A stretch of 64,000 bases of DNA from positions 1-64,000 of the IMG/VR virus record IMGVR_UViG_3300013370_000002; one strand, written 5' to 3'. A program made the translations under genes and the position numbers. The notes under the pieces are model-generated. The model was not told where the DNA came from. It did not search any database and worked only from the letters and a program-made list of their open reading frames with translations. Source of the DNA: an uncultured virus (IMG/VR IMGVR_UViG_3300013370_000002) (lineage: Duplodnaviria > Heunggongvirae > Uroviricota > Caudoviricetes). Positions 8,363 through 64,000 of the stretch are shown piece after piece (position 1 is the first letter of the stretch; each line of letters begins with the position of its first letter).

Positions 8363-9330
8363 TAAGAGAGCAAGTTTTTAGCGATAGAAGTGGTTATCCG
8401 AAGGCTATTGATCCTGAGTATGCAGCGCAGATTGCTGAACACAAAGAAAAGATTGGCTTTACTGATCTTGATGATCCAAACGCGCCAAAACGCAAAGTAC
8501 CGCGCACCGACGCACAGCTACGTGAGCTTGAAGGTATTGAGAAAGCCAAGGCTGAGAAGATAGCGCAAGCTGAACACCAAGCAGCATTGGCTCGCTTAAA
8601 TGACGGCACAGCAATATTGCGTCAAAAGGGTGATCGCACCAAGCCAGCGGCTAAGCAGCTAAAGGTAGCTAAAAAGGCGGCTAAACCAGCTACACGAGGT
8701 AGAGCGCTTGGTTTTAAGGTTGGCGAGTATAAAGAAGCCAAGGCGCGTCGTGTGCCAATCGTAGAAAAACTAAAGGCTGGCGAGTTTATAGAGGTATTGC
8801 AGCAGGACGAAAGCATAGAGAGGCAGCGTGAGTATTCTCAGCAATATTCCGATATTTCGCATATCAGAAGCAATCTGGGGTTAAAAGTGGCTCGTGTGCG
8901 CTGCAATCAAAGAGGCGTGTCTTTTTATGCTATCGACGCATTCCCACGGTACGAGTCAGAAGTGGCGATCAGTGGCACGATCAGCGATAAGAATTTGCTG
9001 CTACAAGCGCTACTGAGCAGAGAGCTAGTGCTGGCAAGTGATTTAACGTGTTCGGCTAAGGTGGCATCAAGAAATGTAATGTCGATCATGCGTAAGCACG
9101 ACTTGGATATTTATACCGTGTTCAGTGGTTCAACAACCGAGGGCTGGATATTTATTCCAAATAAAGAAAAGCAGCAAGTAAAGATCAATGAGCTTGGCGA
9201 TATGTTGCAAGCCATCGATTATTTAAAGATCAGAAAAGAAGTGCAAGTACGTATGCCAGGCGCATCGACTGGCGAGATAGATGATGCGACGTTTATTGAA
9301 TATAAGCGCATACAGAAAGACGGGCAATAA
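8359..9330 (+). CDS. Hypothetical phage protein
   Basis: Long ORF starting at ATG 8359 (ATGA overlap); no recognised motif. Confidence 0.7.
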   Translation: MIREQVFSDRSGYPKAIDPEYAAQIAEHKEKIGFTDLDDPNAPKRKVPRTDAQLRELEGIEKAKAEKIAQAEHQAALARLNDGTAILRQKGDRTKPAAKQLKVAKKAAKPATRGRALGFKVGEYKEAKARRVPIVEKLKAGEFIEVLQQDESIERQREYSQQYSDISHIRSNLGLKVARVRCNQRGVSFYAIDAFPRYESEVAISGTISDKNLLLQALLSRELVLASDLTCSAKVASRNVMSIMRKHDLDIYTVFSGSTTEGWIFIPNKEKQQVKINELGDMLQAIDYLKIRKEVQVRMPGASTGEIDDATFIEYKRIQKDGQ

Positions 9331-9416
9331 AAAACCCTTAGAGCGACGAACTCTAAGGGCGTTTAACAAACTTAACCTGAAATTGGAGTATATCAGACAT
9401 GAATAACCTAATGCAA
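9328..9416 (-). ncRNA. Candidate oop-like antisense RNA unit
   Basis: Minus-strand TTGCAT-N18-TATACT (9416-9387) upstream of a CCCTTAGAG/CTCTAAGGG hairpin with a U-tail. Confidence 0.4.
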
Positions 9417-10151
9417 AACAATGTGAAAACTATGAGCAGTTTAGAAGTGTCCTCGCTCACTGGTAAGAGTCACAGCAATGTACTGCGGGATATCCGCAAT
9501 ATGTTAAGTCAGCTTGATAAATCAATTTTGAATTATCAGCAATATCAAGTAGTTACAGACAAACAAACCAATAGAACGTCCGAGATAAAACTTGATAAAG
9601 ATTTAACTATTACGTTAATAACAGGTTATGACGTAAATACTCGCCATCGGATTAATAAGCGCTGGCAAGAGCTGGAAAATCAGGTATCAGCCAGTAGTCC
9701 GGTCACGCCAGCACTGCCTAACTTTACCAATCCGGCAGATGCAGCGATTGCATGGGCAGCAGAATATAAAGCTAAGGAGGCAGCACAAGAGCAATTAGCG
9801 ATTGCTGCACCTAAAGCTGCTGCACTAGACACCCTCAGTCACGCTAAAGGTTCTCTTGGCATACGTGAGACAGCAAAAGCCGTCGGCATACCTGAGCGAG
9901 AGTTTGTAAGGCGTTGTCTGGATAAAAGCAAGCCTATGTCGTCAAGATTCCTGTACCGCGATGACAGCGGCAGGCTAAATGCACACGCCCACCGTATCAA
10001 GCAAGGCTTTATGACTCAGAAGATAGGTAATTATGCAGATAAGGATGGTTATGATTTTGCGACTGTCCAAGTGAAGTTTACCGCGGCTGGCGTGGCGCAT
10101 ATCGCAAAGTTGATGCAGAACAAGCCATCTAGCCAGTTGAGGGTAGTGTAA
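9399..10151 (+). CDS. Rha-family regulator with a C-terminal KilAC/ANT antirepressor domain
   Basis: MSSLEVSSLTGKSHSNVLRDIR (Rha); LPNFTNPADAAIAWA...IRETAK...VKFTAAG (KilAC). Confidence 0.87.
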   Translation: MNNLMQNNVKTMSSLEVSSLTGKSHSNVLRDIRNMLSQLDKSILNYQQYQVVTDKQTNRTSEIKLDKDLTITLITGYDVNTRHRINKRWQELENQVSASSPVTPALPNFTNPADAAIAWAAEYKAKEAAQEQLAIAAPKAAALDTLSHAKGSLGIRETAKAVGIPEREFVRRCLDKSKPMSSRFLYRDDSGRLNAHAHRIKQGFMTQKIGNYADKDGYDFATVQVKFTAAGVAHIAKLMQNKPSSQLRVV

Positions 10152-11059
10152 TGAGATATACGCATAGCATTAATGCTGTCAAATGCCTTGAGTGGGATAT
10201 AAATCTCGCTCAAGGGGCTTTGATTGACTTGATAAACCAAGCTAGTAGCTGGGCAAAGCCTCATGTTATTGACGATGAAGTCTATTACTGGATATCACGC
10301 AATAAAGTTATTGATGAAATTCCAGTGGCTTACTCAAAAGCTGACACGGTTTATCGGTCAATTAAGTCGTTAGCTGAGAAAGGCATTATCAATCACATCA
10401 AAAGTGGTAAGCGCGATCTTATCAACTTAACTGAGAAAGGCAAAACATGGAACGTAAAAGGCACTGATATTGGTGATGCGAAACTCGGAAATAAATCCGA
10501 GTTAGCTGAAAACTCGGAAATAAATCCGAGCAAACTCGGAAATAAATCCGAAAAAACCCCTAAAAACTCGGAAATATCTCCGACAGATAAGAATACTAAT
10601 AATAAGAGTATTAGTAATAAGAAAAGAGTGCCTAAGACTGATAGTAAAAAAGAAGATGTTTTTAAACCAGTAAAACCAGAGCAAGTATCTGACCAGACTT
10701 GGAACGACTTGTTAGCACTTAGAAAAAAGAAACGAGCAGTAGAGTCTCAAACCGCTTGGACAAGAATTAATAACTCGATTGAACGAGCGCAGCAAGCAAC
10801 TGGTCATACCTTAGAAAACATCTTTAGTTATTGGGTAATGAGAGCTTGGGCTGGATTTGATGAGACATGGTACATCAACGCACACCCACAGCAGCCAACA
10901 AACAACTATCAAGGAAACACTCATGCAAACAACCAATCAGCTAACAACAAACCTCGCAGAGAAACTACAGACGAGTACAAACAGCGGATGCAGCGAGAGT
11001 TTAACGAAGAGTTTGGAATCCAAGTACAGCCCGGCAGCCATACAGACTGCTACAGCTAG
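10151..11059 (+). CDS. Replication initiator (lambda O-like)
   Basis: N-terminal winged-helix pattern, internal iterons, position in the replication module. Confidence 0.8.
   Translation: MRYTHSINAVKCLEWDINLAQGALIDLINQASSWAKPHVIDDEVYYWISRNKVIDEIPVAYSKADTVYRSIKSLAEKGIINHIKSGKRDLINLTEKGKTWNVKGTDIGDAKLGNKSELAENSEINPSKLGNKSEKTPKNSEISPTDKNTNNKSISNKKRVPKTDSKKEDVFKPVKPEQVSDQTWNDLLALRKKKRAVESQTAWTRINNSIERAQQATGHTLENIFSYWVMRAWAGFDETWYINAHPQQPTNNYQGNTHANNQSANNKPRRETTDEYKQRMQREFNEEFGIQVQPGSHTDCYS
10481..10583. repeat. Replication-origin iterons
   Basis: Four copies of AAACTCGGAAATAAATCCGA (10481, 10510, 10532; variant at 10564), each with a TCGGA/TCCGA palindrome, followed by an A-rich tract. Confidence 0.88.
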
Positions 11060-11621
11060 AGTCTTAAATCTTTTTGCAGAACTCAAAGAAGAGTACGGCG
11101 CATTGTTTGACAACAAAGAACATCGCTACACGCCAGCCAAGGCACGCGAATGGGCAGTAGAACTCTTAGAGTCAGGTATCAACGGTGAACAGTACCAACG
11201 TGGACGCTGGCAAGCAATGAAGCAGCAAGATTATCCAGTAGAACGCGCTTACAAGTTTATCAAGCTATGCAAGCAAGGTGAGATTGATACATACCCCACA
11301 GCCACAGAAGCTTTTGATAACGCTTGCAGTCAAAGCGGCTTGATCGAGGATAAGTACATCAAGCGTCAGTGGCTCCACGATGTCGTACAGCTAACAGCGC
11401 ACAGAGTTGGCATGGGTAGGCTCAAAACCGCAGACAACAAGTTTCTGAGCTATTTCAGCAAGGTTTATGAGCAGGTTTGCAGCGAGCATGAGGCTGGCAC
11501 GTTGTCTCTAGTACCAGTAGAGCGTCAGATTGCACACAGTCACCATCCAGTTGAAGTGGGCAGTGAGGTGGACAAGAAGATCAGTGAGCAGTTGGCGCAG
11601 TTGCGGAGGGTGGCGGTGTGA
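10923..11621 (+). CDS. Putative helicase loader (lambda P-like position)
   Basis: Follows and overlaps the initiator; AAGGA RBS at ATG 10923; W...L...G...P...FIKLC pattern. Confidence 0.55.
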   Translation: MQTTNQLTTNLAEKLQTSTNSGCSESLTKSLESKYSPAAIQTATARVLNLFAELKEEYGALFDNKEHRYTPAKAREWAVELLESGINGEQYQRGRWQAMKQQDYPVERAYKFIKLCKQGEIDTYPTATEAFDNACSQSGLIEDKYIKRQWLHDVVQLTAHRVGMGRLKTADNKFLSYFSKVYEQVCSEHEAGTLSLVPVERQIAHSHHPVEVGSEVDKKISEQLAQLRRVAV

Positions 11622-12004
11622 AGGCGATAATATTAAATGACGCTGAAAAGATAGGCGTCATCACTGGCAGAGTAACTCAGGCAAGAATGCCGATACCGCC
11701 TGATAAATACCCTAGGAGTGGATTGCACCACCCATCATTGGGGATTGATAGCAGGGTAGGTATTGGTACTGGTTTAAATATCAAAGTAACTGGCATTAGG
11801 ATTGAGCACATACAGGACATAAACGAGCAGGACGCTAGAGCTTGTGGATACCCTAAGCGCAAGGGCAGAAAAAGCGACCAGTCTCAATTAAGCCTTATGG
11901 ATGATGTTCGTTATTTTGATGATGTGTGGGACGAAAAGTACGGTCTAGGTGCTTATAAGAACAATGATTGGGTCTGGGTTATTGATTTTAAGAAGTGGGG
12001 TTAG
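11618..12004 (+). CDS. ASCH-like phage protein
   Basis: IRIEHIQDINEQDARACG...NDWVWVIDF. Confidence 0.65.
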   Translation: MKAIILNDAEKIGVITGRVTQARMPIPPDKYPRSGLHHPSLGIDSRVGIGTGLNIKVTGIRIEHIQDINEQDARACGYPKRKGRKSDQSQLSLMDDVRYFDDVWDEKYGLGAYKNNDWVWVIDFKKWG

Positions 12005-48537: not shown

Positions 48538-51500
48538 ATGGCATATATCACACTCAATAAAGCGCATACTCACCATAAAACAACTATCAATGGTCAGCCT
48601 ACTAGCCAGTATAGCCGCTACGAAACAGGTTTAATCACTGGCAACAAGCGAGACTTGCCAGCCATTCTAGCGGATAGTACGGGCAGTGACGGCTATAGTT
48701 TTGATAGTGCAGTCGGTAGTGCTGATGATAGCTGGCACGTATTAAACGCCTTTGATAAACAGGGCTTGTATGTCGATAGTATTGCGGTTGGCGGCGCTAT
48801 GGATGCCGATCACGCTACCGTGGTAGCGCGCACCCAGCTTGACAGCCTAGGCGCAGCTAACCTAAAAGTGATTGGTGAGGGATTGGTTCAGTTTGACAGT
48901 ATCAATCAATCGAACGCTGGCACGTTTTCAGTTGACGCCATCAACAAGCTTATGGACAACCCTTCGCAAGATAAAAACTACCTACCGATCATTACCGCCT
49001 CAGAGCTTGCTTATGAAGCTGATCGCGTTACCTTTGACAGTGTGGAGTGGGGCGAAGGAGCAGAGCTATTAAGCCATGACGGGCGTGATAGCACACTCAT
49101 GCTAGACATGACTCGTGCCGATACTCGCAGCGACTTAGTAAACGAATTTGAGCTTGCAGACGTACTCGACTTGCTGGGCGCTGAACCTGAGCAGAGCTTT
49201 GATGCCTTGATGGACACCAAAAACCGTTTAGGGCTATTGAAAGATCGCTTATATAACGCGATGAGCCGTGCCGGTAACGATACGGTATCAGTTACTAATG
49301 TCACTGAAACCAAGCCATTTAAGCGCCAGGGCGTGACTAATATTGCCTTTGTGTTTGATCTATCAGACGGTCAAAAATTGTCTATCTGGTTCCACAATCC
49401 AGACAGTACGCCATCCAAGTTAATGCCAAGCGATATCATGATTAGCTGGAAATGGATGTTAAACAAGCGTGATGTGACCGCCGCATTATCACCAAAACAA
49501 GGTGATAACGTCCAGTTGCCTGCGCTGGCAAGTCGAATCATGCGCGTAGCTGCCAAGAACTCTATGCCATTTAAGCGTACACAAGCCAAGCGCTTAAAGC
49601 TAGATAATGAGCTAGCAGAAGCAAAAATGACGATTGAAAATAAGACTGCCACTATCGAGCAGTTGGATCAAGATATTGCCAGCCTAAATAGCCAGATTGA
49701 TGCGGCTATGAAAGCGCCTAAAGTTGAGCCAGCGGTTAATAATTCTGATATTGAAGCAAATAACCCGTCATTGAATGGCACGGACAGCGCATTATCCGAA
49801 AAGTTGAATCTAAGCGCTAAAGACTTAAATGCTTTTAATGCAGGCTTATCCGAACATGACACTGTTAATATCGATGGTTATGCCGATAAGATCAAAAGAA
49901 AGCAAAAGCAGTTAGACGATCAAGGCGTGTCCTATGTGGGTCAAAGTGAATTTCAAAATCTTATCAACAATGGCGATGAGCCGGGACTATCTGAGCAGAA
50001 GCAAAAAGAGACTATAGACAACTTAATAAAAGACGCTGAGAACCTTCGTGATAAAAAAATAGGTCCATCAAAAATTGTTGGTGCAGGCTACAAAGATGCT
50101 CGATCAGTCGCTTTTAAGTGGTTGGCAAAAACAATAAAAATGGACCAAGAAGCTTTTAACGGCGATGTTGCAGGTTTTAATAACATTATCAACATGAGCA
50201 ATTATATTATTTATTTAGGCCAACAGTTAAGTGGCAGCAACAATGAAGGTGCAGCGGCAGATAACGCGACTGACACCGAAGCAGATATAGCACTAGCCAG
50301 ACCAAGTCAAATGGAAGAGCTTAAAAACCTTAGAAACTTAGCGCCTAAGTCTGGCGAGGCTATAAAATCAGATGATCCGGACGCTATTGAGAAGCTAGAA
50401 GCTAAACTGGGTTACTTGCAAGCGTTTGCAGCCGTGATGCGTACTGCTAACAAGCATGTGCGTAAAGGTGATGACGCCGCGCTTAGCAAGATGGGTTTAA
50501 ATGATAAAGAAATCGCAACCCTAAAAGAGCCTGATTATGCGGGTCGAACCGGCTTTGCTGATTATCAGATGACCAACAACAACGGTGAAATGGGGCGTAT
50601 CAAGAAGCGCTTGAAAGGTCTTTATCGTGAGCGCGAATTAGAGCAGGCTGAAAATATCGATAGCGATCCAGCTAGCCAGCCAAGCCAAAATATGACATCC
50701 GCTGAGATTGATGCTATTGAACTTGAGGCATTCAAAGCCTTTACGGTTAGTAATGATTTTTGGAATAAACCTACATCGGTTGTCCAAGCGTTAAGCGAGA
50801 GTGACTTCAATCGCTTATCAGAGTCATTAACAGACGTTAATTACCATAAAGAAAATGCTTTTTTTAAGGCAAAACGCACCGGCGATCAATCTTTGATTAA
50901 TAAAACCATGTTTGATTTGCAAAATAGCGCTGAAGATGCCGCCGTATTACCAGATGGTTACGATGTCGATACCGCAAGCAATGATGCGATTATTAACGAC
51001 ACTAGAATACAGTCGCTAATCACTGACTTAGGTTTAACGCTTACATCTAGTGAGAATAACGAGTACGAGTACGGTACAAAAACCGATAATAGCGCTTTTT
51101 CGTTTAAGCTGAAGCACGGTGAGCTATCAACCGTTTATTTTGTTCAAAACGGCGATGGCAGCAATCTAAATAACGCAATGACTGAGGTTAGCGATATAGA
51201 CGGGTTTATCACTCAAGCAAAAGATATGCACGCTAAATACATGGCTTTACTAGGTGAGGATAATACGCCTGATCCTGACAACACGCCAACCAACCCCAAC
51301 AACAAAAAGATAGTTAAAGGCAAGTCAAACAAAGCTAAAACACCCAAAGGCACCAAAATTGAAAGCGTCTTTGCTTTAGTTGATGCTAAATTCCTGATTG
51401 CCTCGCATACCGCAAACGGTAGTAAAAACCCTAAATACCCGCAAGAGCTACAGCCGCGTGATCGTGCGCGTGAATCTTCTATTGCATGGGTACAAAAAAC

Positions 51501-53232
51501 CTCAAGAGAGCTTGATCCTGAGAGCTTAGGTCGTACTGGCCGTGTTGATACCGGCGCGCCTATCGTTGGTGATGATCTAGTGGTAGAAAGCGGCAACGGT
51601 CGCACTATTGCGATCAAGATGGCTTACGCCAATGGCGATGCTAGCGAGTACAGAGAATGGCTTGCTGAGAACGCTGATATGTTCGGTATGACCGCTAAGC
51701 AAGTAGAGAGCTATAAGCAGCCTATTCTTGTGCGTATGCGTACCACGCAAGTGAACCGCAGCGAGTTTGCAGTAGAAGCGAACCAAGACGACAAACTAAG
51801 CTTTACCGCCTCAGAACGCGCCAAATCAGATGCTAAGCGGGTTAATGCTGGCATGTTAGAGCTATTCGATCCTAGCGAGTCAGGCGACATCTTAGCCGCC
51901 AGTAACCGCCCATTCGTAAAATCGTTTCTAGCCAGCCTAGGCGCGACAGAAGCAGCGCAATATACCGACAGTAACGGCAATCCAACTCAAGCGCTAGTCG
52001 CTCGCATTAAAGGCGCATTGTTCAGTAAAGCCTATGACGATGACCGCTTGCTTGAGATGATGGCAGATCAAACAAAGCCTGAGCTACAAAACACCCTAAA
52101 CGCCCTAACAATGGCCGCGCCTAAGTTTGTAGCAGCACAAGCGGTCAACCGTAGTGACGCGCAGGACTTGGCTGAAAAAGTGGTTGATAGTGTCGAGCAG
52201 TCGCTAAGCGACGAGGTTAAAAACGCCATTGTTGATGCCACCAACATGATTATGAACGCCAAGCTTAGCAATCAAGATATTAAAGAATACGTGCTGCAAC
52301 AAGGGTTGTTTGAGCAAGTGGACGATGCCACCGCTGAACTGGCCGTATTTCTTGCCGCTAATGCTCGTAGCGCCAAGAAAATGACTGAGTATTTTAATGC
52401 AATGGCAAGCTATATCGAGCAAGACAGCGTGAGCCGTCAAAACCTTGATATGTTTGGCGAGCCTGAGCCGTTATCGCTCGCTGATGTGATTGCTCATGCC
52501 AATAGCAAAGCCAATGACAATACCGACACCATAGGATCACTTGATATGTTTAATGAGACGGTAGTAGAAGAAGCGGTAGTGACTGACAACCAAGCTACCA
52601 CAAGCGACAAGAATTACTCATCCAGCAACCCTTATGCTGCTTACGCTAATGATGACGAAGATGCTATGAATAACGCCGACCAATGGGAGGCCAGAGAGCC
52701 GCTAACAGAAAACCGTTTGGATCAGTTTAACAAAATGGCAGAATCGCTTGGTTTTAGCACCTTTATCGAATCAAGACATGCAGGCTTAGGGGTATTCCAA
52801 GCAGCCAAAGAAGTATCTAATCGCAAGGTCGAGATTGACGGTAAATTCAAAAACAATGACAGCCAGTCATCAAAAGAAGCGCCTAGAGACTTCACTATCG
52901 AAAAATCTGAAAACGGAAACATTGTTGATTACCAGTACACCAACGACTTATCAGATTATATTAAAAAGGCGAACGACTGGCTAAATCAAGCCAGCCCACT
53001 AGACGACTTCAGCACAGCTAACCTAGCCGCCAAAGTTGACGGTATAGTCGCTGAGATCAACTCAGACGACTTTGACCCAGAGATTTTTGATGTTGATGCG
53101 CTAAGTGCTATTGCAGATGAGGCTGAGGGCAATAGCGAGCTTACCGCAAAACTTGAGGCTGCAAGTGAGGTGTATCAAAACAAGTTGATCGCAGTTGCTA
53201 TGCAAGCTATGTCTGATATGGCGGGCAAGTAA
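48538..53232 (+). CDS. darA: DarA-like polyvalent virion protein fused to a DdrB-like ParB domain
   Basis: DarA_N block LSDGQKLSIWFHNPD...WKWMLNKRDVT; SDDPDAIEKL...TNNNGE..R.K.R block; ELQPRDR...GAPIVG...VESGNGRT ParB-like block. Confidence 0.75.
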   Translation: MAYITLNKAHTHHKTTINGQPTSQYSRYETGLITGNKRDLPAILADSTGSDGYSFDSAVGSADDSWHVLNAFDKQGLYVDSIAVGGAMDADHATVVARTQLDSLGAANLKVIGEGLVQFDSINQSNAGTFSVDAINKLMDNPSQDKNYLPIITASELAYEADRVTFDSVEWGEGAELLSHDGRDSTLMLDMTRADTRSDLVNEFELADVLDLLGAEPEQSFDALMDTKNRLGLLKDRLYNAMSRAGNDTVSVTNVTETKPFKRQGVTNIAFVFDLSDGQKLSIWFHNPDSTPSKLMPSDIMISWKWMLNKRDVTAALSPKQGDNVQLPALASRIMRVAAKNSMPFKRTQAKRLKLDNELAEAKMTIENKTATIEQLDQDIASLNSQIDAAMKAPKVEPAVNNSDIEANNPSLNGTDSALSEKLNLSAKDLNAFNAGLSEHDTVNIDGYADKIKRKQKQLDDQGVSYVGQSEFQNLINNGDEPGLSEQKQKETIDNLIKDAENLRDKKIGPSKIVGAGYKDARSVAFKWLAKTIKMDQEAFNGDVAGFNNIINMSNYIIYLGQQLSGSNNEGAAADNATDTEADIALARPSQMEELKNLRNLAPKSGEAIKSDDPDAIEKLEAKLGYLQAFAAVMRTANKHVRKGDDAALSKMGLNDKEIATLKEPDYAGRTGFADYQMTNNNGEMGRIKKRLKGLYRERELEQAENIDSDPASQPSQNMTSAEIDAIELEAFKAFTVSNDFWNKPTSVVQALSESDFNRLSESLTDVNYHKENAFFKAKRTGDQSLINKTMFDLQNSAEDAAVLPDGYDVDTASNDAIINDTRIQSLITDLGLTLTSSENNEYEYGTKTDNSAFSFKLKHGELSTVYFVQNGDGSNLNNAMTEVSDIDGFITQAKDMHAKYMALLGEDNTPDPDNTPTNPNNKKIVKGKSNKAKTPKGTKIESVFALVDAKFLIASHTANGSKNPKYPQELQPRDRARESSIAWVQKTSRELDPESLGRTGRVDTGAPIVGDDLVVESGNGRTIAIKMAYANGDASEYREWLAENADMFGMTAKQVESYKQPILVRMRTTQVNRSEFAVEANQDDKLSFTASERAKSDAKRVNAGMLELFDPSESGDILAASNRPFVKSFLASLGATEAAQYTDSNGNPTQALVARIKGALFSKAYDDDRLLEMMADQTKPELQNTLNALTMAAPKFVAAQAVNRSDAQDLAEKVVDSVEQSLSDEVKNAIVDATNMIMNAKLSNQDIKEYVLQQGLFEQVDDATAELAVFLAANARSAKKMTEYFNAMASYIEQDSVSRQNLDMFGEPEPLSLADVIAHANSKANDNTDTIGSLDMFNETVVEEAVVTDNQATTSDKNYSSSNPYAAYANDDEDAMNNADQWEAREPLTENRLDQFNKMAESLGFSTFIESRHAGLGVFQAAKEVSNRKVEIDGKFKNNDSQSSKEAPRDFTIEKSENGNIVDYQYTNDLSDYIKKANDWLNQASPLDDFSTANLAAKVDGIVAEINSDDFDPEIFDVDALSAIADEAEGNSELTAKLEAASEVYQNKLIAVAMQAMSDMAGK

Positions 53233-62700: not shown

Positions 62701-63668
62701 ATAACGGAACCTTTATCACTAAAGACGATGTTACCGTTAAGCGCGCTCACTACTACCCAGGGCAAACCGATTACTTTAACGCTGTTACTGATATTATTAA
62801 AAATAGCGGGGTTAAGATTACAGCAAGCGATAAAGAAATTATTGATAACGATCGTATCCCTTATGCCATACTAAAAGAAAATAGCGCTGCTACTTTTGAC
62901 GCTGTAGAGGCTGCCAAAGCATCGATAACGGCTGAGACTGATCCGGCAAGCTTTAATAAGATGGCTATAGATGTTTTCGATAACTATTTGTATGATGATA
63001 AGTATATCGACAAAGGACTTAGCGACGATGTTAAGCTAGCATTAATCAATGCCGCTTATAAAGATGCCTCACCTGGCTATATCAGATCATTTGATGTGAT
63101 AGAGTATTTTTCTGAAGCGTTAAAAAAAGCTGTTATCAGTGAAGCGGTAAGCAAGGCGGCAAAAAATGGTGATAGCGTCGAGCAGTTTTCAGAAAATCTA
63201 GGTTTGGATGGATCAAAACTGCAAGCGATTTTAGATGGCGGGGCGACTGAGCATAATATTAATGAGTTTGGACGCTTTGATAAACTAAAAAGCACGGTCG
63301 ACAAAGAAAAGGCAAAGGCGTATTTTGAGGCTTTTGAAGGTGGTAGTATTACCGCGCTCAAGACCAATATGAAAGTCGACTCCACATTGAGATCGTTTAT
63401 ATTGAGCAATAGCAAGGCGGCGGATGGTGAAGGCGATAGCGGTATTGCACCGGGTACAATAGTCTATATTGGCGGTGAAACCATGGCTAATAAGAAAACC
63501 ATCAAGGCTTATGCCAAGTCGCACGGCGTAGTGATTAGAGGCACAGTGCAAAAAGCATACTGGGACGGCCCCAATAGCGTATGGGTAACAAGTTTTATAG
63601 CATGGCAGAAAATGATAGAAGATAGACCGGCCCTAGCAGACGAACTCACCATACAAACTAAAATATAA
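56745..63668 (+). CDS. darB: DarB-like methyltransferase/SNF2-helicase anti-restriction protein
   Basis: KYTGSGG, EYYTP, LDPSAGTG, NVPFG; VGLGKT, IDEAH, TATP, EQRNGRGARQG; 2307 aa. Confidence 0.88.
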   Translation: MKEKLARLKRLQTALASLKAANDIKSRIAAAKELTAVLKELGAFAKAKPLDSTAPTSKDATTKKIVNRTTIAIPDKPAARQKANDTAIALLDEIQGKGLTRDDLTDEQIEVLAKYTGSGGGLTAKDGRRGSAYEYYTPEAVAQSVWDLASEMGFSGGKVLDPSAGTGIFAATSPESAVVDSIELDETSGGIAQILNDGERSKTIISPFEAQAALIADDSLDMVVTNVPFGDNKTRGANATLDKAYQKESLENYFILRSLEKVKHGGLAIFVTPTSVVSGKKADKKKLRKLTSLKADFLGAYRLPTSVFEQTGADVVTDVIVYRKHSRDAIEQINDLYQAGDIDALVNSNVLWDGYLSGNYFKKAEHKRFILGDVVSEKDRWGKMAEKVVSTKKTPEIAKMMKKFGDSRIDWNMLGAAGAEIIDYKNGDVVFQDGKQLEYQDGRWQAIEKEVTSTELEIQQQLASMGSAIDMVMARVTYEQISATFEYSQKTGQAGLIPSDALSMLDRASKSVTSDRAAAWNCVLCAQAIREAIELHEYGYDFKNGEPEITDFMKYAFLDGKNTKLSGDAKQDHKFVALYYANGKYNDAWLGNINSEVVDNGAAKSYQSVIARMQYENKSLYVTPEQLKQIDPAADPISNDDWFTNHDGSQIIAANDFLVGSLSDRLKDIDNQIELTNDEQIKAKLIKQKSIARDSVARIDVKRLELDLRTPLISAEDKVRFLKQTVHKDAFVAYNAQGRGIADIDIKGSSTKDSLEKKDKDKLYNRIGDWLGKGTVTLGSVKLETMSQRDALNWMTEQINTANIKFNSWVKANKNIMSGLEAMMTNEDNLYFTQNADETPIDIAGMNPALSLHGYQNAEVRKQGRFFGGINGFSVGLGKTFTSLASVQHVHNIGVKKKTIFVVPNSVLSNWRKEATFAYQNTDDCIFIGLREDGEKFRVMSNKYDEDLLAAIDGKYRKIFMTLEAFKRIRLKDNTLGDYADYIKQNDTAFAEKELQKDDEKVNGLTAELIERLTMNSNAPFLEDMRVDSVVIDEAHAFKNSITAPNTDDRIKYLSQPGQSARGEDAQAKLWYVRGSTPNNDGVQLLTATPITNSPLEIYSMLSLASGRNTINKMCGGINGADDFIQIMCQIQEEVMPTIDGGERSQNVFTGIRNANILRTVIGSNAVIKDAQDVGMSVVIPDREEVATEVNLGKGVMDQLRMFQDAYTVAKQLEKDQLDNELADINHPQSPFNPNSPFSIIQKKYGEEVELMAHPFNLIRKMDVMIADSEFSEMATFYDFEKSQEKLAQSVIDKFNKKAYSDSRKRLSPYTDKENAEAVYTKDGDTKVFKEYKITVEAKIVLHDGRKRIVVDTLNGKTQSRFEDIADKDKLNLDVTTSAKIAAMLENFKTEQAEPRGANSDGTASNIVKQIIFCDHLFLHNKIKKLIAKRAGVPASKIAIITGQINNEPDEMIDIQDGFNAESDDNQYQVIIANKKAEVGINLQRGTQAIHHLTTGWTPDSLEQRNGRGARQGNKTQKVAIYHYDADGTFDEFKRTMIDKKDEWISSVLKDDGKNTIEVTGSISRTEQDALIATMGNKEAMREYQTTKDAKEKEVRYNAAVKRQSINMDVVREQASMMADLTIDKFYEQAVINVVSLIRDNRTLLTKNQKSTAKADTRKKNELLYENSKQIALDQLSDILNSVGVQRYDKAEDWDRTHKYVPVGSIVSPDTSANNIYISIMNDTTEYPPSKTDEWAKKFSNMQILGSSYNHSNDKLIINEGSIYQAAYDEVKETAEGLINQSVIAANYIAEETGIDGISLPANAGELIARKEAVIVNGVYIQVGSIVIKPQGADKPDDIYLARMDDGKLTLSKVGKASFGGTYSVSNNTPSITMFIEADMVINPNSSRYLSAIKQIAAFEDSLHLQGALKPLSFKYSDVLPEVAEYRDDSIRPIWNMSADFGGSHANIENSPIAIMLPLFVLNAGTPFAKAMLTQYAKYGFEINIDNGTFITKDDVTVKRAHYYPGQTDYFNAVTDIIKNSGVKITASDKEIIDNDRIPYAILKENSAATFDAVEAAKASITAETDPASFNKMAIDVFDNYLYDDKYIDKGLSDDVKLALINAAYKDASPGYIRSFDVIEYFSEALKKAVISEAVSKAAKNGDSVEQFSENLGLDGSKLQAILDGGATEHNINEFGRFDKLKSTVDKEKAKAYFEAFEGGSITALKTNMKVDSTLRSFILSNSKAADGEGDSGIAPGTIVYIGGETMANKKTIKAYAKSHGVVIRGTVQKAYWDGPNSVWVTSFIAWQKMIEDRPALADELTIQTKI

Positions 63669-63677
63669 GGGATATTT

Positions 63678-64000
63678 ATGAATTATTTATTTGATAAAGA
63701 TGATCTAGCAGATAGAACGCAAGCCACTATCAAGTCGCTTGCTAAAAATAAGCCAGACGTAAATTTTACTGAGTTTGCTGCTAGCGTGATATTTGATCGC
63801 CTAAAGAGCAATATACAGCGATACCGCGTTTATGGTCCTTATTGGTGGGCACTAAAAGACGTGCTACGCCGTATGGATTATAACGTAGGCGATGAGACGG
63901 ATAGCGACATGGCTGGCAAGTATTGCGGAAGTAGTGACGCTGAAACACTGGTAGCAGCGGACGCCTTTTATCTTGATATGAGTAAAACCAAGCCAGTCAA
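63678..64000 (+). CDS. Ulx-like protein (partial, runs off the window)
   Basis: MNYLFDK...RYRVYGPYWWALK...; directly after darB, as ulx is in P1. Confidence 0.6.
   Translation, partial: MNYLFDKDDLADRTQATIKSLAKNKPDVNFTEFAASVIFDRLKSNIQRYRVYGPYWWALKDVLRRMDYNVGDETDSDMAGKYCGSSDAETLVAADAFYLDMSKTKPV

Follow-up and report, generated by a model that had tools for sequence, protein, structure and literature searches.

An HsdR-like C-terminal tail in the DarB homologue of a P1-like phage as a candidate docking module against type I restriction

Bacteriophage P1 DarB counters the type IA restriction enzymes EcoK and EcoB (PMC11109961), and the mechanism of the Dar system 'remains unclear' or 'has not been defined' (PMC12707154; PMC11109961). 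Past work on DarB was confounded by restriction alleviation that plasmids induce (PMC11109961). In the polyvalent proteins that phages and conjugative elements carry, the methylase-helicase dyad of DarB ranks third among modules in prevalence (Iyer et al. 2017, PMC5512222). In this study, a DarB homologue was analysed that is encoded in a 64,000-nucleotide stretch of DNA from an uncultured virus, referred to as the window (positions 1 to 64,000 of IMG/VR record IMGVR_UViG_3300013370_000002). Near the C terminus of this protein lies a segment homologous to the end of the type I restriction subunit HsdR, hereafter called the tail or, with its borders in DarB, the cassette. Probably, though far from surely, the tail is a docking module stolen from HsdR that competes with HsdR for the host methylase subunit HsdM. 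The tail-HsdM contact is a model prediction, and we infer competition with HsdR and relief of restriction. What is new is a mechanistically telling module in a DarB-family anti-restriction protein.

Binding of HsdR to the HsdM-HsdS core is ascribed to its C-terminal region (PMC2878639). Type IC enzymes are put together step by step via a cleavage-incompetent R1M2S1 form, HsdR cycles on and off, and a C-terminal HsdR mutation alters this cycling (PMC12707154). A cleavage-dead HsdR that can still assemble competes with the wild type and lowers restriction in vivo (PMC5248579). This trans-dominance ('negative complementation') is a laboratory precedent for the mechanism proposed below, in that a nuclease-free assembler competes, but it concerned whole, laboratory-made subunits, whereas the phage would have grafted the tail alone onto an injected protein. 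Ocr and ArdA also neutralise type I enzymes via the M2S core and independently of specificity (PMC11109961); they mimic DNA and fill the DNA-binding groove, whereas the DarB tail would mimic a subunit and fill the HsdR socket. Pieces of a type I system also serve as bait between phage and host in the case of Ronin (bioRxiv 10.1101/2023.04.06.535777), where a host decoy made from HsdM and HsdS senses anti-restriction proteins; with DarB, by contrast, the phage would mimic a subunit to disarm the enzyme.

The window DarB shares with P1 DarB the methylase-SNF2 helicase dyad, the gene order darB-ulx, and a DarA_N/DdrB-ParB protein and a PmgG-like gene nearby. It differs in its C-terminal 607 residues, to which P1 DarB has no BLASTP similarity, and no HsdR-derived domain was found in P1 DarB by Pfam at E<=1. 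Whereas the targets of P1 DarB are type IA enzymes, the window cassette derives from a family that is EcoR124-like (type IC-like). By homology it corresponds to the final ~85 positions of the EcoR124_C domain (PF12008) in a widespread HsdR subfamily; unlike the HsdR proteins of that family, DarB has the tail only, with no HSDR_N nuclease, no HsdR-type motor, no T1R_D3 and none of the first ~170 EcoR124_C positions, and the tail of EcoR124I itself is not recognisably similar to it in sequence. Full-text literature searches brought up no earlier account of a tail derived from HsdR in DarB or polyvalent proteins. The terms 'EcoEI', 'R124', 'R subunit', 'decoy' and 'HsdR' are absent from the available main text of the 2017 polyvalent-protein paper (PMC5512222), whose supplement with LPD1-LPD40 may list such a domain under another name and may thereby bear on this point.

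The HsdR-like cassette and its origin

The initial annotation had reported that 77 residues of DarB (residues 2145-2221) resemble the extreme C terminus of a group of HsdR proteins and had proposed a search with this segment alone as a check. The quoted residues are the exact translation of positions 63177-63407 of the plus strand, and the resemblance was borne out by sequence searches far beyond chance, the matches being HsdR C-termini and the best of them coming from the host genus Psychrobacter. The homologous block is slightly wider than first described, covering residues 2142-2224 (positions 63168-63416), and aligns without gaps to residues 951-1033 of a 1035-residue HsdR with 52 of 83 residues identical (63%; BLASTP, E 4e-33). 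A search of 5.8 billion proteins with a 116-residue piece (residues 2110-2225), made against proteins longer than it, yielded 434 proteins at E<=0.01 among 1126 candidates. The top match was a 1035-residue 'HsdR family' protein of an uncultured Psychrobacter (E 9e-25), and among the 120 matches listed all 120 show PF12008 along with the domains usual for HsdR. When 1.84 billion cluster representatives were scanned with index-free HMMER, 381 matched at E<=1e-3, 91 of them at E<=1e-10; among the best 150 of the 381, the match ends 30 residues or fewer from the protein C terminus in 131. An alignment of the segment with 29 C-terminal fragments of HsdR has a consensus (LG.D..KL...TE.NINEFGRFD.LK.TVD..KAK.YFE...VN.K.D.LLR.FIL.GGF) that reproduces the HsdR motif given in the initial annotation, and the motifs NINEFGRFD, KAKAYFE and LR.FIL of the HsdR tail are present in the DarB segment. 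The best-scoring representative of the scan, P0123 (149 residues, E 6e-24), has three matched stretches because the middle of its tail (NRFDNLKNTVDKKQAKDFLEKREGN) is tandemly duplicated.

Pfam by itself would have missed the DarB tail. On the segment, EcoR124_C scores 14.6 bits (E 0.025) against a cut-off of 23.1, over profile positions 156-258 of 260, and on a longer DarB piece it gives no match, whereas the Psychrobacter HsdR matches positions 2-260 at 98.8 bits. The HsdR domains PF04313 (HSDR_N), PF18766 (SWI2_SNF2 motor) and PF22679 (T1R_D3) were not found in DarB by Pfam; all three are present in the Psychrobacter HsdR. By these domain assignments, DarB is a holder of an EcoR124_C fragment and not a member of the family. 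At E<=10, none of the Pfam LPD families matched the tail or the C-termini of HsdR.

The closest relatives of the window DarB are annotated in Psychrobacter genomes, with 85% and 79% identity over the C-terminal 608 residues, and one of them lies on a contig (70.9 kb) of Psychrobacter sp. FME13 that also figures as a viral genome in IMG/VR, which makes Psychrobacter the host genus. A search with DarB residues 1700-2307 retrieved 13 DarB-like proteins of 2189-2366 residues. The segment is present in the four closest of these, P0273-P0276, at 65-93% identity (BLASTP; 100% to P0002, which is the window DarB), and BLASTP found no trace of it in the other nine at E<1. The last 520 residues of 11 DarB proteins were then aligned, leaving out the near-duplicates P0278, P0280 and P0282. 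Five of the 11 C-termini carry the cassette and six have a short Ala/Asp/Glu/Ser linker instead, one of these six coming from another Psychrobacter, while both flanks of the cassette are conserved in all 11. The initial placement of the segment between linkers was right: SKAAKNG stands upstream and AADGEGDSGIAPG downstream. In the alignment, the HsdR tail is thus delimited as a discrete cassette between linkers.

The tail profile matched 7 of 154 Psychrobacter species genomes, six times in frames of 1035-1054 residues (HsdR) and once in DarB. In a sample of 401 Moraxellaceae genomes 17 matched, and all 10 matches outside Psychrobacter lie in frames of 1005-1077 residues. With Psychrobacter HsdR tails the DarB tail shares 49-66% identity, and with three Firmicutes tails 50-55%. 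A maximum-likelihood tree was built from 63 distinct tails and 84 columns, after one internally duplicated row had been dropped and 13 identical rows merged; the alignment is short, and the tree leaves many of its deeper forks unresolved. All five DarB tails group in a single clade (support 100/88), which lies within a nine-row clade that also holds four Psychrobacter HsdR tails (97/86); beside this larger clade stands a fifth Psychrobacter tail (94/86), and the other Moraxellaceae and Firmicutes tails fall outside. In a nucleotide comparison, the cassette and the 3' ends of four Psychrobacter hsdR genes show 70-72% identity over 200-239 nucleotides (blastn, best E 1e-32). Because HsdR proteins of many phyla have the tail and the DarB clade sits nested among them, the transfer went from hsdR to darB, once, within the host genus. 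Tree and DNA identity together indicate that the cassette was captured from Psychrobacter.

The substitution pattern indicates that the cassette is under purifying selection. Compared with the copy of the FME13 phage, with which 78 of 83 residues are identical, the ratio of nonsynonymous to synonymous substitution rates (dN/dS; NG86 method, one phage pair) is 0.11, and in the same pair it is 0.13 for the upstream 440 codons and 0.23 for the last domain. The cassette dS between the window and the FME13 phage is 0.28, whereas those of the flanks, 0.83 and 1.74, are three to six times higher, and this low value is a hint of a more recent exchange between phages than for the rest of darB. A recent exchange would also fit a neutral passenger, that is, a functionless piece of hsdR recombined into a darB linker that tolerates insertions, as the site of the cassette does. 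That the cassette is such a passenger seems very improbable, since it has stayed in frame in five DarB cluster representatives whose tails are now as little as 65% identical, has the dN/dS given above, and has boundaries that coincide precisely with the HsdR tail unit, and since four other proteins hold independent tails.

Recurrence of the tail and its predicted contact with HsdM

In 19 of the best 150 of the 381 representatives the tail lies away from the C terminus. The initial annotation had anticipated neither this recurrence in other DarB-like polyvalent proteins nor the lack of the cassette in six of the 11 aligned DarB relatives. In P0148, P0237 and P0307 it is N-terminal to a DarB-like methylase-helicase module (phrog_10089, E 0), the reverse of the order in the window DarB. 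All three are typical polyvalent proteins, with domains such as MuF_C, DarA_C, YodL, Toprim and LPD18. P0237 (4398 residues) has DarA_C at 1934-1988 and the tail at 2266-2344, and P0307 (3869 residues) has Toprim, LPD18 at 1904-1966 and the tail at 1976-2051. LPD18 was rejected as the identity of the P0307 tail, which it adjoins without overlap. P0148 (2527 residues) carries MuF_C, a nucleotidyltransferase, EcoEI_R_C at 580-680, the tail at 684-771 and then YodL. EcoEI_R_C, detected above its cut-off (E 9.5e-7), is the C-terminal domain of a different type I HsdR family. Such a tandem of two HsdR-family C-terminal domains would hardly be explained by a structural or motor role, whereas a collection of docking decoys would account for it. 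In a fourth protein, P0215 (1026 residues), the tail is joined to a Zeta-toxin kinase. The tails of P0148, P0237, P0307 and P0215 stand at four separate places in the tree, three of them on long branches, and four separate origins are therefore assumed. P0247 and P0268 carry the tail near the N terminus (residues 74-151 of 454 and 52-131 of 528, respectively), have no Pfam or PHROG match elsewhere and are sisters on the tail tree (99/80); they may represent another class of tail-bearing proteins.

Two scans of IMG/VR were made. A protein-pattern scan returned only the FME13-like contig, and a degenerate NINEFGRFD scan gave seven stretches, one in DarB, four in frames of 1043-1066 residues and two in frames of 310 residues; neither scan found further phage fusions. 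Two 'Bacteriophage sp.' contigs that matched the tail were not informative; there it ends frames of 1026 and at least 936 residues that were taken as HsdR by size and position. On one IMG/VR contig (L033, positions 8854-11992, minus strand) a tail-type hsdR is split into overlapping frames of 751 and 309 residues, which could reflect a frameshift or a truncated C-terminal product, and on another (L030) the tail lies in a frame of 310 residues. A free C-terminal HsdR fragment could itself compete with HsdR.

Tail-type HsdR is linked with a conserved HsdM of ~916 residues. Two Psychrobacter loci have the gene order hsdM (916-922 residues), rhuM, hsdS and hsdR (1037-1043 residues), the HsdR giving a full EcoR124_C match (E 5e-28). 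In one of them (L015) rhuM is assigned by Pfam; in the other (L016) a 360-residue open reading frame (ORF) is assigned by position only. The first ~487 residues of the long HsdM are homologous to EcoR124 HsdM (PDB 7bst_D, E 1e-71), and the remaining ~430 match no Pfam family. The long HsdM is 61-65% identical from Acinetobacter to Bacillus, Smithella and Christiangramia, and long HsdM proteins like P0308 (63-66% identity) were found in all eight further genomes examined, none of them Psychrobacter, that have a full-strength tail-type HsdR, in seven of them 4-6 kb from the tail on the same contig. The eighth is a fragmented metagenome-assembled genome, in which the gene lies on another short contig. 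Counted with the Psychrobacter loci, all 10 genomes have the long HsdM, and nine of the 10 have it ~3-6 kb or less from the tail on one contig.

A complex prediction with HsdM, also proposed by the initial annotation, was carried out with the 916-residue HsdM (40-row alignment) and the 83-residue DarB tail (30-row alignment). Three runs scored 0.67, 0.67 and 0.68, whereas the best of three controls scored 0.00, so that the predicted complex passes its controls. The mark applied is reached by 116 of 157 solved complexes and by 2 of 215 mismatched pairs, a rough guide as own alignments were used. Contacts agreed between runs to at least 93%, and the predicted local distance difference test (pLDDT) value of the partner was 85. 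On HsdM, the predicted contacts are residues 50-74 and 113-115 of the HsdM_N domain and 208, 235-240 and 264-267 of the catalytic domain; on the tail, they are residues 2170-2176 and 2179 (HNINEFG..D) and 2203-2216 (TAL..NM..DS..R). The model supports binding of the DarB tail to the long HsdM but does not show it.

The tail could instead be a general helical module, for instance for DNA binding or motor regulation, that does the same job in DarB and HsdR motors and makes no contact with HsdM. The helical domain at the C terminus of HsdR also affects ATPase, translocation and cleavage (PMC5248579), the tail recurs beside SF2/SNF2 motors, and no solved structure ties it to HsdM. Nevertheless this seems unlikely: the DarB tail lies ~600 residues from the motor between flexible linkers, in other polyvalent proteins it lies on the opposite side of the motor, and P0215 has a tail and no motor. 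Moreover, the six cassette-less relatives among the 11 aligned work without it, its nearest relatives are specifically the HsdR tails of the host genus, and the prediction with HsdM passes its controls.

The darB gene and its surroundings

The virus is 65.7 kb long and of CheckV grade complete. No near-identical DNA was found in the phage collection. The initial identification of the gene as darB was confirmed by Pfam, PHROG, homology to P1 DarB and the surrounding dar locus. The protein consists of the methylase-SNF2 helicase dyad (residues ~19-1621), a lineage-specific C-terminal third, the HsdR-tail cassette and a conserved last domain (Table 1). Pfam assigns SNF2-rel (788-1042), Helicase_C (1411-1513) and ResIII, with an Eco57I methylase domain at residues 207-285 slightly below the cut-off (24.2 against 25.3 bits). 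Among PHROGs, phrog_11801 ('DNA methyltransferase') matches residues 19-1621 with E 0 and phrog_10089 ('DarB-like antirestriction') matches with E 2.7e-72. By tblastn, 140 of 50,697 phage records matched DarB and none covered 80% of the query; the best was Xanthomonas phage Rb1 with 42.6% identity over residues 76-1687, and P1 DarB is 30.1% identical over residues 80-1552 (E 2e-59). The single ORF joins several unrelated effector domains, namely the methylase, the SNF2 motor, the HsdR tail and a further conserved C-terminal domain, which is what distinguishes polyvalent proteins, and its homology to P1 DarB suggests delivery together with the incoming DNA. The last ~71 residues (VYIGG...KAYA...W...W...P.LA.ELT) are unrelated to P1 DarB and may be a packaging or partner-binding domain.

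The order darB-ulx is that of the P1 annotation. Upstream (5') of darB lies a PmgG-like head gene, with portal and sheath genes further upstream. The 1564-residue protein of the dar locus has DarA_N at residues 220-342, a DdrB-type ParB domain at 937-1068 and a primase-like stretch around residues 604-706; by the gene names, we take the DarA_N and DdrB-ParB parts to be separate dar-locus proteins in P1. Given the Ulx-like, PmgG-like, DarA_N/DdrB-ParB, portal and sheath genes, the virus is therefore regarded as a P1-like myovirus with a dar locus. The FME13 phage (L002 / L028) fills its whole contig of 70,903 bases, which has a k-mer coverage of 140.7 (a value for that contig alone); it may be a plasmid-like prophage, as P1 is.

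Table 1. Coordinates of darB, its C-terminal parts, neighbouring dar-locus genes and the long hsdM genes (window positions unless a contig is named)
Feature	Position	Strand	Basis or remark
DarA_N + DdrB-ParB protein, 1564 residues, dar locus	48538..53232	+	Pfam DarA_N E 2.4e-31, ddrB-ParB E 2.6e-32
darB homologue, 2307 residues	56745..63668	+	single ORF; tail cassette in frame
Upstream linker SKAAKNG, start of insertion relative to cassette-less relatives	63147..63167	+	alignment of 11 DarB C-termini
HsdR-tail cassette, residues 2142-2224, homologous to the end (~83 residues) of HsdR from the EcoR124 family (PF12008), with five helices predicted	63168..63416	+	BLASTP, sequence searches, AF2
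HNINEFGRFD motif, residues 2170-2179, first predicted HsdM contact patch	63252..63281	+	complex prediction; best-conserved part of tail family
TALKTNMKVDSTLR, residues 2203-2216, second predicted HsdM contact patch	63351..63392	+	complex prediction
Downstream acidic/Gly-Ser linker (AADGEGDSGIAP)	63417..63452	+	DarB ORF, 11-row alignment
Last domain, ~71 residues, kept in 11/11 relatives with or without cassette	63453..63665	+	alignment
Ulx-like anti-restriction gene, past window end	63678..63998	+	phrog_1629, E 7.6e-20
Long hsdM genes	L015 14526-17294; L016 14936-17686	-	916-922 residues

A proposed mechanism and its weighing

The proposed course of events is as follows. One DarB sublineage gained the last ~83 residues of HsdR by recombination with hsdR of the host genus. 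DarB would be a virion-packaged, injected methylase-SNF2 translocase, and in HsdR the tail would form the end of the C-terminal region that seats the motor-nuclease subunit on the HsdM2-HsdS core. Borne on its linkers, the DarB tail would dock on the N-terminal and catalytic domains of the ~916-residue HsdM and fill the HsdR socket. A methylase core that meets phage DNA would then bear the nuclease-free DarB in place of HsdR, and no cutting R2M2S1 complex would form. Because the socket is conserved whatever the specificity of HsdS, a single tail should be enough to disarm this type I subfamily in all its specificity variants, and the action would be in cis only because DarB sits on the injected DNA.

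The same docking could also serve a hijack, in which the motor of DarB carries the methylase core along and phage sites become methylated before HsdR acts. DarB has the layout of HsdR with a methylase replacing the nuclease, plus motor and tail, and the protection by Dar in cis (PMC12707154) suits an action on the DNA with which DarB travels. The docking prediction applies to hijack and plain competition alike and nothing here separates the two. Such a hijack is nevertheless doubtful, as DarB already has a methylase domain of its own and some type I families are slow to methylate fully unmodified sites. A C-terminal domain needed for complex assembly and DNA binding has reportedly been described for EcoR124I in a 2018 JBC paper.

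Several observations weigh against the docking of the tail in competition with HsdR. We infer that in this subfamily HsdR is kept on HsdM by the tail and not by the helical domain before it. P1 DarB has no detectable HsdR-derived domain, and the proposed mechanism is therefore not a general one for DarB but an add-on in one lineage. The action of Dar in cis and its low number of injected copies speak against a simple titration of all cellular methylase. Conservation at the 16 interface positions of the tail does not significantly exceed that at the remaining 67 (mean entropy 1.64 vs 1.89; one-sided Mann-Whitney p 0.15), and the most divergent DarB tail, that of P0276, has an altered NINEFG motif. 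The complex score is the model's own confidence, and the pass could partly be memory of a like interface, because EcoR124I complexes have already been solved; such memory would show likeness to the HsdR-HsdM contact, not binding by the DarB copy.

The comparison with solved structures belongs to the same side. The AF2 model of the DarB tail consists of helices only (pLDDT 83 overall, above 90 over the tail). It found no Foldseek match at E<=1e-3, and its best match among 48,161 chains by VIA-align, DNA polymerase III alpha (Z 5.5), was discarded as lying at noise level for helical models. The tail profile gave five hits among PDB sequences, the best with E 0.1 and none of them HsdR, and a 222-residue C-terminal piece of DarB gave no hit there at E<=10. 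The Psychrobacter HsdR is similar to EcoR124I HsdR in sequence (E 1.4e-79) only up to residue 747. A model of its last 300 residues (pLDDT 78) aligns collinearly with residues 701-1028 of EcoR124I HsdR (7bst_B, cryo-electron microscopy; Z 8.5, 242 residues aligned) at a root-mean-square deviation of 9.4 A. This high-deviation alignment is the sole link to a solved enzyme, and a weak one: it sets the tail against the final ~85 residues of EcoR124I HsdR and proves nothing beyond this. By Foldseek, the 300-residue model had no match at E<=1e-3. A Bacteroides fragilis HsdR fragment (3evy_B) was rejected as a match to the tail, as it covers model residues 15-113, which correspond to the preceding helical domain. 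The Psychrobacter sp. FME13 lysogen lacks both the tail-type HsdR and the long HsdM, its best HsdM match being 34% identical in a 497-residue frame, and this is neutral.

Competition for the HsdR socket may extend beyond this lineage. Injected proteins of the DarB type could be pseudo-HsdR subunits, the host-stolen tail plugging the HsdM socket so that a nuclease-free, DarB-bound core results that may even methylate the phage DNA. Polyvalent proteins of phages and of conjugative elements would then hold stolen docking tails of different type I families, the EcoEI- and EcoR124-type in tandem in one, and together form an anti-restriction class that acts by mimicry of a subunit at its socket, whatever the HsdS specificity. 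This wider view is a serious possibility, though one that we would not yet call probable.

The question of how DarB overcomes type I restriction dates back to 1987, and the mechanism is still described as undefined in reviews from 2024-2025. For one DarB lineage, the cassette offers a concrete mechanism, with an 83-residue module, a ~916-residue HsdM as partner and predicted contact residues. If true, it would be a third way to disarm type I enzymes, beside DNA mimicry and cofactor depletion, and it would explain why very large injected proteins gather small helical domains. It would also pin down, for a type I subfamily found across phyla, which part of HsdR anchors the restriction subunit to the methylase. 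The rule it suggests is to seek fragments of host defence subunits inside injected phage proteins as a way to find counter-defence modules.

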